A stretch of DNA of 64,000 nucleotides from a virus: IMG/VR virus record IMGVR_UViG_3300017989_000002. One strand, 5' to 3'. Positions 12,118-64,000 of this stretch are shown piece after piece (the first letter of the stretch is position 1; the number at the start of each line of letters is the position of its first letter). The notes under the pieces are model-generated. The model was given only the letters and a program-made list of their open reading frames with translations. It did not search any database and was not told the DNA's origin. The translations under genes and the position numbers were made by a program.

Positions 12118-12134
12118 CGCATAAGGAGTTGGAG
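12118..12134 (+). promoter_or_regulatory. CGCATAAG promoter-like motif
   Basis: CGCATAAGGAGTTGGAG, 50 nt before ATG 12168. Confidence 0.75.
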
Positions 12135-60843: not shown

Positions 60844-61141
60844 TGCCCTCACGGGCGAGGTCATCCCCGACCCGGGCGCTGTCGTCTACAAGGTGGTGCC
60901 CTGCGGTGCGCGCATCGTGCAGGCCCCGCCCTCGTGCCTGGCGGGGAACCGCTGGCAGGAGTCCTTGTCCGCGGCGGTCAGCGCCGTGCTCAAGGACTCC
61001 TCCTGGGCAGAGTGGGAGGCGCGAGGTCACACCATCGACGCCCTCGTGTGGCGCCGCACCCGGCTCTTGGAGGCAGGGGGACGTGCGAGGCATGGAGGTG
61101 GATGTACGACGATGTGCTGGATGTCCACACCTGGACGCTGA
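60827..61141 (+). CDS. hypothetical protein (may join the next ORF via the G5 tract)
   Basis: GAGGAGG RBS. Confidence 0.55.
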   Translation: MRDVPDALTGEVIPDPGAVVYKVVPCGARIVQAPPSCLAGNRWQESLSAAVSAVLKDSSWAEWEARGHTIDALVWRRTRLLEAGGRARHGGGCTTMCWMSTPGR

Positions 61142-61437
61142 CGTCCGTCGACCTGTTCATCTTGGAGAGGACGACGGACCTGCGGCGCAGCGGGAGGTAC
61201 GCGGGCCCGCACACCAGCGGCACTGGCGACCTCACGAAGGCAGGAGTCTACATGGCTCGCCTCGACCACTGGCGAGAGCTCAACACCGGCGCGCGCCTCT
61301 CCAGCGACGCCATCAAGCCGCACCCCGTCCACGACCGCCTGGACGGACTTCGTCTCGACCTCCGCAAGAAGCTGGTTCGCCTCGAGCACCAGATCTCTCG
61401 GACCTTCCCTGACCACCTCCGCCCGGAGACGCCATGA
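61102..61437 (+). CDS. hypothetical protein
   Basis: ends in ATGA coupling; start uncertain. Confidence 0.55.
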   Translation: MYDDVLDVHTWTLTSVDLFILERTTDLRRSGRYAGPHTSGTGDLTKAGVYMARLDHWRELNTGARLSSDAIKPHPVHDRLDGLRLDLRKKLVRLEHQISRTFPDHLRPETP

Positions 61438-62219: not shown

Positions 62220-62828
62220 ATGCGACGCAACACCTTCCTCACCACCCTCGCCCTCTTCGCCGGCATCGGCGCATCCAGCGGCGCGCCAGAGGCCTCGGCC
62301 GACGGCAACGCCGCGAAGCCCTCCCCCAGCAACCCCGCGGGTCCCGACGGACACCAGGGCGGCGGCGGCATCAGCATCGACCTGTCCGGCCCCGCCAACG
62401 TGCTCCGAGCCTGGCGCACGCCCGAGCAGGTCGAGGATCGCCTCCGCGCCGCCAAGGCGAAGCGGTACATGCGCGCGACCAAGCTGGCTGCCCAGGCCGG
62501 CTACAAGGTCGGCATGCCCGTGGTGGCGCTCCGTGACGTGACCGAGAGCGGGCACGAGGACCTCGCCAACCACGAGATCTCGCCGCCGGACACGAGCAAG
62601 GGCGAGAGCTTCGACCCCGCCTACGTGCACGGTGCCAAGGGCGAGCGAGGCGTCATCGTCGGCGTCGACTACGGCGGCGAGCCGACCGTGCGCTTCGAGC
62701 GGACGGGCACGGCCACCCTCGTGTCCCACGCCGAGGTCGTGCCGCTGCTGCCGCACGGGTTCAGCAGCAGCGTGGTCGCGAAGCGGCGGCTCGCGCAGGG
62801 CCTCGAGCTCCAGGCCGCCCTCGGCTGA
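62220..62828 (+). CDS. twin-arginine-signal protein with C-terminal SH3/NifZ-like domain
   Basis: MRRNTFLTTLALFAG; YKVGMPVVALRDV...KGERGVIVGVD..PTVRF. Confidence 0.6.
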   Translation: MRRNTFLTTLALFAGIGASSGAPEASADGNAAKPSPSNPAGPDGHQGGGGISIDLSGPANVLRAWRTPEQVEDRLRAAKAKRYMRATKLAAQAGYKVGMPVVALRDVTESGHEDLANHEISPPDTSKGESFDPAYVHGAKGERGVIVGVDYGGEPTVRFERTGTATLVSHAEVVPLLPHGFSSSVVAKRRLAQGLELQAALG

Positions 62829-62994: not shown

Positions 62995-63011
62995 CGCATA
63001 AGGACTTGGAG
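62995..63011 (+). promoter_or_regulatory. CGCATAAGGACTTGGAG promoter-like motif
   Basis: exact 17-mer, 38 nt before ATG 63033. Confidence 0.8.
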
Positions 63012-63032
63012 AACATCTTCCCTGGAGACCTC

Positions 63033-64000
63033 ATGACCACCGAGCCTGTCCCCCACTGCACGCACCCCGAGCACGCCGACCACCCCGTCCACGACCGGCA
63101 CCGCATCGAGGAGCGCGCGCGCATCAAGCGCGACAACTTCGCCTACCTGTACGGACGCTCCCTCACGGGACGCATCCAGACCGCCCACCCCAACCCCGAC
63201 GCGCGCCCCGGCGTCGACACCGGTCGCTTCCGGGACCACGAGCCGGAGATGCAGCGCATCCCCCGTCCCTTGAGCCCCGAGGCACAGGAAGTCCTCGACC
63301 AGTGGAAGCGCGCCTTCCCGGGCGTCGACCGCTTCGGCAACGGCTCGAAGTCGAACTTCCCCCGGCGCGAGGACTTCGACAACGACGAGGACTTCGAGAA
63401 GTACGGCGAGGTCTTCGTCGGCATCGACTACGGGCAGAGCGAGATGCGGGTGCTGAGCTCCTTCGGCACCCCGCAGGACGTCCTCAAGCGCATGGACCGA
63501 GGCGAGCCCCTCTCCCGCATCCTCTTCGTCGACCACGGCCGTGCGGTCGAGATGGCGAAGAAGTTCGAGGAGGGGGCCAACCCCGCTGCGGTGTCGGAGT
63601 TCATGCGGCAGCACTTCCCCGACAACGTGCCACCCGACACCCAGGGCGCTCCCTACACCTTCGGCAAGCCGGCGCCTGCTGGCGAGATCAAGATGCTGTC
63701 GATGGGCGCACACGTGCCGGGTCCTCCACCCTGCTCCATCTGCGCGGCAGACGCCGACCCGCCCACCTGCGAGCACATGACCGTGCCCGAGGGCTCGGAG
63801 CCGCTCGCCTCGGACGCGTGGCCTCCCTACGACGGCATGTGGATTCAGGACGCTCCCGCGCACCAGCCTGACTACAGCCGTGACCTCTTCGCCATCAGCC
63901 ACGACGCCGAGGGGCAGTTCCTCGACGCCGCCCGGCTGAAGAACGTGCACCACTCCGACAAGGACCTGGACCGCTCGCGGCGGGTCTACGAGAAGCTGAA
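63033..64000 (+). CDS. ORF running off the right edge; N-terminus carries shuffled family-A DNA polymerase motifs
   Basis: not in ORF track; own translation: ERARIKRDNFAYLYG, TGRIQTAHPN, TGRFRDHEPEMQRIP, FVGIDYGQSEMRVL; GGAG RBS; high GC3. Confidence 0.8.
   Translation, partial: MTTEPVPHCTHPEHADHPVHDRHRIEERARIKRDNFAYLYGRSLTGRIQTAHPNPDARPGVDTGRFRDHEPEMQRIPRPLSPEAQEVLDQWKRAFPGVDRFGNGSKSNFPRREDFDNDEDFEKYGEVFVGIDYGQSEMRVLSSFGTPQDVLKRMDRGEPLSRILFVDHGRAVEMAKKFEEGANPAAVSEFMRQHFPDNVPPDTQGAPYTFGKPAPAGEIKMLSMGAHVPGPPPCSICAADADPPTCEHMTVPEGSEPLASDAWPPYDGMWIQDAPAHQPDYSRDLFAISHDAEGQFLDAARLKNVHHSDKDLDRSRRVYEKL

Follow-up and report, generated by a model that had tools for sequence, protein, structure and literature searches.

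A second, strongly diverged family A polymerase-like protein carrying zinc ribbons, probably no longer a normal polymerase, encoded by a phage

Divergent second family A DNA polymerases (PolAs), known as divPolA1 and divPolA2, are found beside the regular polymerase in large phages (PMC11348598). Their exonuclease and thumb are missing or truncated, and models of divPolA2 show motifs A, B and C at their usual positions (PMC11348598). I describe here a phage protein, P0002, that resembles both of them in being additional to the replicative polymerase and in having neither exonuclease nor thumb, and divPolA2 also in that its gene sits among variable neighbours, away from the replication module (PMC11348598). 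Unlike divPolA2, however, P0002 has no N-terminal globular domain, its N-terminal region being 44 residues long, its motif B is degenerate and its orthologues have no motif C, and it is more degenerate than divPolA1 and divPolA2; the divPolA2 example AUR84708 looks unrelated to it by eye, and tblastn against phage records revealed no sequence similarity of P0002 to divPolA1 or to the divPolA2 proteins of barbavirus/Vibrio phages. With the canonical family A polymerases (the Klenow fragment of E. coli, Taq, T7 gp5; PF00476) P0002 has in common the order of its motifs and the catalytic Asp/Asp/Glu, and PolAs account for all of its best matches, by structure as well as by profile. It differs from them in scoring below the Pfam cut-off, in lacking the exonuclease, the thumb and the motif B lysine, in its proline-rich fingers, in an extra post-motif-B helix placed before motif A, and in a 300-aa zinc-ribbon/CCHC extension. 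Inactivated polymerase modules such as the C-terminal family B module of Pol epsilon (PMC2669801) offer another comparison, since in P0002, too, catalysis is apparently lost and zinc-binding modules are adjacent; by contrast with that module, P0002 belongs to family A, is a free-standing phage protein and has its carboxylates present, and its inactivity is something that I infer. P0002 is a second, strongly diverged paralogue of the phage's PolA catalytic domain fused to zinc-ribbon modules.

The window, that is the whole stretch of 64,000 nucleotides that was analysed, corresponds to the minus strand of bases 106860-170859 of a 174,678-bp phage record with 68% GC and terminal repeats. The P0002 gene extends past the window edge by a further 1183 nt, to G000:C1:105677, and the full open reading frame, read from the phage's own 174.7 kb record, encodes 716 aa. 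An earlier note on this DNA had reported a reading frame that begins at 63033 and leaves the window, with a short motif ahead of it: the reading frame is real, the peptides named in it lie at the residues given, and the motif, CGCATAAG, is present at 62995-63002. Codon-position GC (GC3 0.93, GC2 0.45) is the coding signature of this phage genome, and the frame is therefore considered to be coding; the identical protein is recorded on 4 contigs. The features used below are the following.

62995-63011, plus strand: promoter-like box CGCATAAG with a conserved downstream extension, recognised by its recurrence (core 62995-63002)
63021-63025, plus strand: Shine-Dalgarno sequence GGAGA (GGAG core), lying 7-8 nt ahead of the ATG, seen in the sequence itself
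63033-64000, plus strand: first 322 codons of P0002, a 716-codon gene with its ATG at 63033
63045-63101, plus strand: His/Cys-rich N-terminal stretch, aa 5-23, kept in the orthologue according to alignments
63114-63155, plus strand: motif-B-like 14-mer, aa 28-41, marginal (hhalign E 0.05-0.3)
63165-63266, plus strand: GRIHT...TGR...Q-x-I-P-R block, aa 45-78 (hhalign E 2e-7 to 4e-10)
63276-63353, plus strand: inserted copy, aa 82-107, of the post-motif-B helix and FPGV turn (hhalign, HMMER, phmmer)
63405-63467, plus strand: motif A strand and helix, aa 125-145, with D132, E137 and R139
63606-63665, plus strand: motif B relic at its normal site, aa 192-211 (hhalign E 3.7e-10, MAFFT alignment)
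G000:C1 about 105690-105875, minus strand, beyond the window: Cys/His domain of P0002
G000:C1:28826-32152, outside the window: canonical PolA and RecA-like gene

The motif CGCATAAG occurs 10 times in the window, against 0.41 copies expected, and 9 of these copies are on the plus strand; the sites other than that of P0002 are at 12118, 15232, 22772, 34515 (minus strand), 34553, 39044, 39319, 44881 and 58100. Genome-wide there are 15 copies, 14 of them on one strand, each lying 25-45 nt upstream of a Shine-Dalgarno sequence and start codon, and the motif extends into a longer conserved box, often with GACTTGGAG next. Since the same box and leader also precede the orthologous gene in related phages (L006:2779-2795, L103:6627), CGCATAAG is, on sequence grounds, a conserved phage-specific promoter or leader. 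No sigma-70 promoter and no intrinsic terminator were found, and a hairpin upstream of the box is not significant (z -1.1).

Aligned with family A polymerases, residues 45-400 of P0002 keep the normal order of the polymerase domain, beginning with the GRIHT/TGR block and ending with the last palm strand. When a profile of two members of the family is used, hhalign finds residues 45-219 collinear with PolA in the order GRIHT, motif A, motif B, with an E-value of 3.7e-10. The Pfam profile DNA_pol_A (PF00476) gives P0002 23.7 bits, under the cut-off of 34.3, and 14.4 bits in a six-frame search of the genome; homology to PolA is nevertheless supported because of the hhalign E-value. No PolA-profile match was found by HMMER in the six genome frames besides P0002 and the canonical polA. 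The product of the latter, P0018 (664 aa), comprises an exonuclease and a polymerase, adjoins the RecA-like gene and is about 28% identical to P0002. Short metagenomic contigs carry its closest relatives (83% and 70% identity); for the known phage isolates, identity to it stays below 30%.

The GRIHT/TGR block of P0002 falls on Pfam profile positions 115-133 and is preceded by only 44 residues. The earlier note had taken its two TGR-like strings for a duplication, a proposal that was rejected because residues 45-78 align residue for residue with the phage's own PolA, in which the same canonical pair, GRIHT and then TGRLSS, is found. In motif A, D132, Y133, Q135, E137 and R139 occupy invariant columns of the alignment. 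Motif C, V-H-D-E, is located at residues 340-343 (HDE 341-343), which places the HDE, not visible to the earlier note in the 322 aa available, 19 codons past the window edge; its hhalign score is 28.3, against 11.9 ± 2.2 for shuffled sequences (0 of 60 reach it), and PHROG 17, 'DNA polymerase', matches residues 336-362. When P0002 is aligned by MAFFT with 52 polymerase domains of PolAs, the last palm strand comes to lie near residues 385-400. Besides D132, E137, R139, H341, D342 and E343, P0002 also retains R65 and Q74.

At the normal site of motif B, only R192, G205 and Y208 survive: the lysine has become Pro200, the phenylalanine Gln204, and the stretch contains four prolines. The motif 6 residues are missing at their normal sites, and the 90 residues that follow the motif B relic are of low complexity and poorly modelled. 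Neither a thumb nor a 3'-5' exonuclease lies N-terminal of the palm, and the absence of both, already remarked upon in the earlier note for the part inside the window, holds for the full 716 aa. That note had otherwise described the protein as a shuffled string of polymerase epitopes without a palm, a view that it was ready to give up should the rest of the reading frame complete an intact or permuted palm with motif C that folds as a functional polymerase. At the sequence level the complete gene does encode a collinear polymerase domain that includes motif C, and the view of shuffled epitopes is not supported.

Residues 82-107 do stand out of order. They correspond to the helix that follows motif B, and interrupt the stretch that leads from the Q-x-I-P-R end of the TGR block to the D...R...F residues ahead of motif A. 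Their hhalign score of 35.0 compares with 11.8 ± 2.0 for shuffled sequences (0 of 60), HMMER puts them on profile positions 493-519, phmmer pairs them with the corresponding part of the phage's own PolA, and they are kept in the two relatives described below, P0003 and P0139. By these scores, residues 82-107 are the one statistically solid PolA element out of order, duplicated or transplanted. The motif-B-like string at residues 28-41 carries the complete R-x3-K-x3-F-x3-Y-G pattern, the sole complete copy in P0002, and is likewise out of place; it is not found in P0003 or P0139. Although it ranks third among the 284,495 14-mers of the six genome frames, its hhalign score of 16.2 is equalled by 3 of 60 shuffles and its score against a motif B PSSM by 9 of 5000, so that its likeness to motif B appears marginal, barely better than chance. 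Scanned alone against Pfam, the motif-B-like string, the inserted helix and motif C each gave no match. Of the claim that the motifs follow an abnormal order, with motif B in the lead, the part that stands is therefore the displaced helix, whereas the relic of motif B sits at its normal site and the N-terminal string is marginal.

Beyond the PolA-like part, residues 400-716 form an add-on that contains two mutually similar zinc ribbons, at aa ~488-513 and 589-618, and a C-terminal Cys/His (CCHC) domain at aa 650-711, C-G-x-C ... H-T-C. The latter matched no Pfam or PHROG family; phmmer searches found it, and no other part of P0002, in at least 14 unnamed proteins of 60-230 aa from metagenomes, and it resembles a small zinc-binding domain not yet described. 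P0002, P0003 (L006:3936-3950) and P0139 (L103:7387-7401) all end with a short acidic tail, G-x-G-E-E, while their C-terminal modules differ; the tail may serve in docking.

When 1.8 billion representatives were searched exhaustively with phmmer, the PolA-like part of P0002 had one distant homologue, P0003, of which P0139 is a near-identical allele, and the P0002 family is taken here as these three members. A word-indexed homologue search with full-length P0002 retrieved the protein itself alone, and tblastn of P0002 against 50,697 phage records gave no match at E 1e-5. Viral, metagenome and genome contigs scanned with P0002, with the two-member alignment and with the back-translated W-x2-A-F-P-G-V-x-R-F pattern returned only chance matches, as judged by tblastn and inspection of the reading frames. 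The contigs of P0003 and P0139 (L006 and L103, respectively) come from related phages, in which a number of the surrounding genes keep their order at 42-82% identity; P0002 and its orthologues are 28-31% identical over about 146 residues. The orthologues, 213-376 aa long, or 376 and 244 aa when counted from an upstream TTG start, retain only the first ~150 PolA-like residues, comprising the TGR block, the inserted helix, motif A and motif B. Motif B is better preserved in them than in P0002, lysine included; neither P0003 nor P0139 has a motif C.

The start called for the orthologue (ATG 2916 on L006) is probably wrong, as a TTG stands behind GGAGGA at L006:2823. Initiation there (L006:2823-2915) adds 31 residues, including a His/Cys-rich stretch conserved with P0002. 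The two orthologue alleles (L006:2916-3953 and L103:6763-7404) are identical in DNA sequence from 400 nt upstream to codon 143 and fully divergent thereafter, and the break at about codon 143-144 is, to judge by this pattern, an intragenic recombination breakpoint. The zinc-ribbon segment is missing from one allele, which is also followed by another gene.

Structure prediction bears on the same question. The AlphaFold model of P0002 from its single sequence is unusable (pLDDT 40), and a model built on the alignment of PolA domains has a pLDDT of 52, and in it three elements alone, namely the motif C hairpin, the motif A strand and the inserted helix, attain moderate confidence; the fingers region, residues 195-290, is rich in proline and glycine and stays below 45. 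Foldseek relates the alignment-based model weakly to KlenTaq and Klenow (E about 0.01, TM 0.2-0.3). With VIA-align, its top 9 matches are all family A polymerases (Z 4.6-6.0 over 198-244 residues), a result to be read with the bias that the input alignment gives to the model. The ESM Atlas has its own model of P0002, independent of the PolA alignment, and this has a TM of 0.48-0.58 to PolA clusters. Residues 19-44, which include the motif-B-like 14-mer, are predicted to be a helix. Together the models are consistent with a PolA palm and fingers in P0002, without amounting to proof.

P0002 is probably no longer a normal polymerase. The explanation that I favour, with a probability of roughly one half, is that it would be a non-replicative, catalytically crippled, nucleic-acid-binding accessory protein. 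This reading draws on the intact PolA encoded elsewhere in the genome, on the full reading frame with its motif C and its collinearity with PolA, on the inserted helix and the zinc ribbons, and on orthologues that are 28-31% identical, shortened and devoid of motif C among neighbours 42-82% identical. P0002 would then not be the replicase; it would likely bind nucleic acid through its zinc ribbons and the DNA-contacting TGR/Q-x-I-P-R block, and the conserved job would reside in the N-terminal PolA-derived core, for which motif C would not be needed. It would probably act as a crippled or inactive accessory factor within a block of rapidly changing genes driven by a phage promoter. The displaced helix, the absence of exonuclease and thumb, the lost motif B lysine and the orthologues without motif C partly support the interpretation given in the earlier note and make it plausible that the role is non-replicative and perhaps non-catalytic. 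The missing thumb, the lost lysine, the proline-rich fingers and the orthologues without motif C also argue that the conserved function is not polymerisation; the intact carboxylates, in the opposite direction, argue for residual catalysis. Three points can be raised against a crippled protein: the presence of all three catalytic carboxylates and of the neighbouring histidine would be unusual in a dead enzyme, the N-terminal R-x3-K-x3-F-x3-Y-G helix could substitute for the lost O-helix residues, and the shortened orthologues may be decaying remnants that say nothing about function.

In another interpretation, possible but doubtful, P0002 would be an active, specialised family A polymerase, devoid of thumb and exonuclease and serving in repair, gap filling or other non-replicative synthesis. 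In this scheme the N-terminal helix would supply the Arg, Lys and Tyr lost at the O-helix, and the active site would be non-collinear. The scheme accounts for the conservation of D132, E137, R139, H341, D342, E343, R65 and Q74 and for a motif-B-like 14-mer that ranks third in the genome, with 9/5000 shuffles equal to it, and falls within a predicted helix; moreover, published thumb-less divergent second PolAs were judged active from models (PMC11348598). Yet the orthologues have neither the N-terminal helix nor motif C, the N-terminal string is of poor significance in hhalign (3/60 shuffles), the motif 6 residues and the O-helix lysine are gone from their normal sites, the fingers (residues 195-290) are rich in proline and glycine with a pLDDT under 45, and there is no thumb to hold the duplex. 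A less likely reading is that P0002 would be a decaying polA duplicate without selected function, an open frame that carries the motif remnants of a once active gene. The extreme rarity of the family, the stepwise shortening of its members (716, 376 and 244 aa from the upstream start), the low-complexity proline-rich stretches and the weak profile scores would all fit; against it stand 716 codons that stay open with a GC3 of 0.93, a promoter box and Shine-Dalgarno sequence conserved in the orthologue, an N-terminal core, inserted helix included, preserved at 31% identity across phages, and the occurrence of an identical protein on four contigs.

The hypothesis of a polymerase mimic or decoy, put forward in the earlier note, whose PolA-derived core would titrate a host defence sensor or a polymerase partner, is very unlikely. 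It would explain why the conserved portion is the PolA-like core and not the catalytic triad, and it is compatible with a gene that evolves far faster than its syntenic neighbours in an accessory block without known families, with the acidic G-x-G-E-E tail common to all three proteins, and with C-terminal modules that are swapped at a breakpoint near codon 144 between otherwise identical alleles. Fast evolution, however, fits relaxed constraint equally well, at about 28% identity P0002 resembles the PolA of its own phage poorly for a surface mimic, and neither the defence-related models nor any anti-defence family gave a match. It is distinctly unlikely, too, that either the ~150-residue core is a fast-evolving palm mimic with exchangeable C-termini, engaged in a conflict over defence or a replication partner, or the long form rebuilds an active site from its out-of-order pieces. 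P0002 is a more extreme case than the known second PolAs: it has lost the thumb, the exonuclease and the nucleotide-binding lysine and has gained a duplicated helix and zinc ribbons, and in the sister phages the PolA domain is reduced to a 150-residue core incapable of polymerase function. If this core has a selected function, a replication enzyme would have been recycled into a non-enzymatic accessory protein. Were the long form active, P0002 would be a family A enzyme whose active site is built in an unusual way.

The genes that surround P0002 matched no known family, and scans with PADLOC and NCBIfam gave no useful match. The small downstream Cys-rich gene, used as a query, retrieved only unrelated Vibrio and Aeromonas phages. 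Directly upstream of P0002, a 202-aa gene (62220-62828, plus strand), also without a family match, encodes a protein whose N-terminus resembles a signal peptide or that of a lipoprotein; contig L103 has no counterpart of this gene at the syntenic position. Two genes upstream of P0002 lies a 111-aa ORF (61102-61434, plus strand) in which the PolA profile detected nothing significant; it contains the strings T-G-A-R-L-S-S and H-P-V-H-D-R, which echo the TGR block and residues 17-22 of P0002, respectively.
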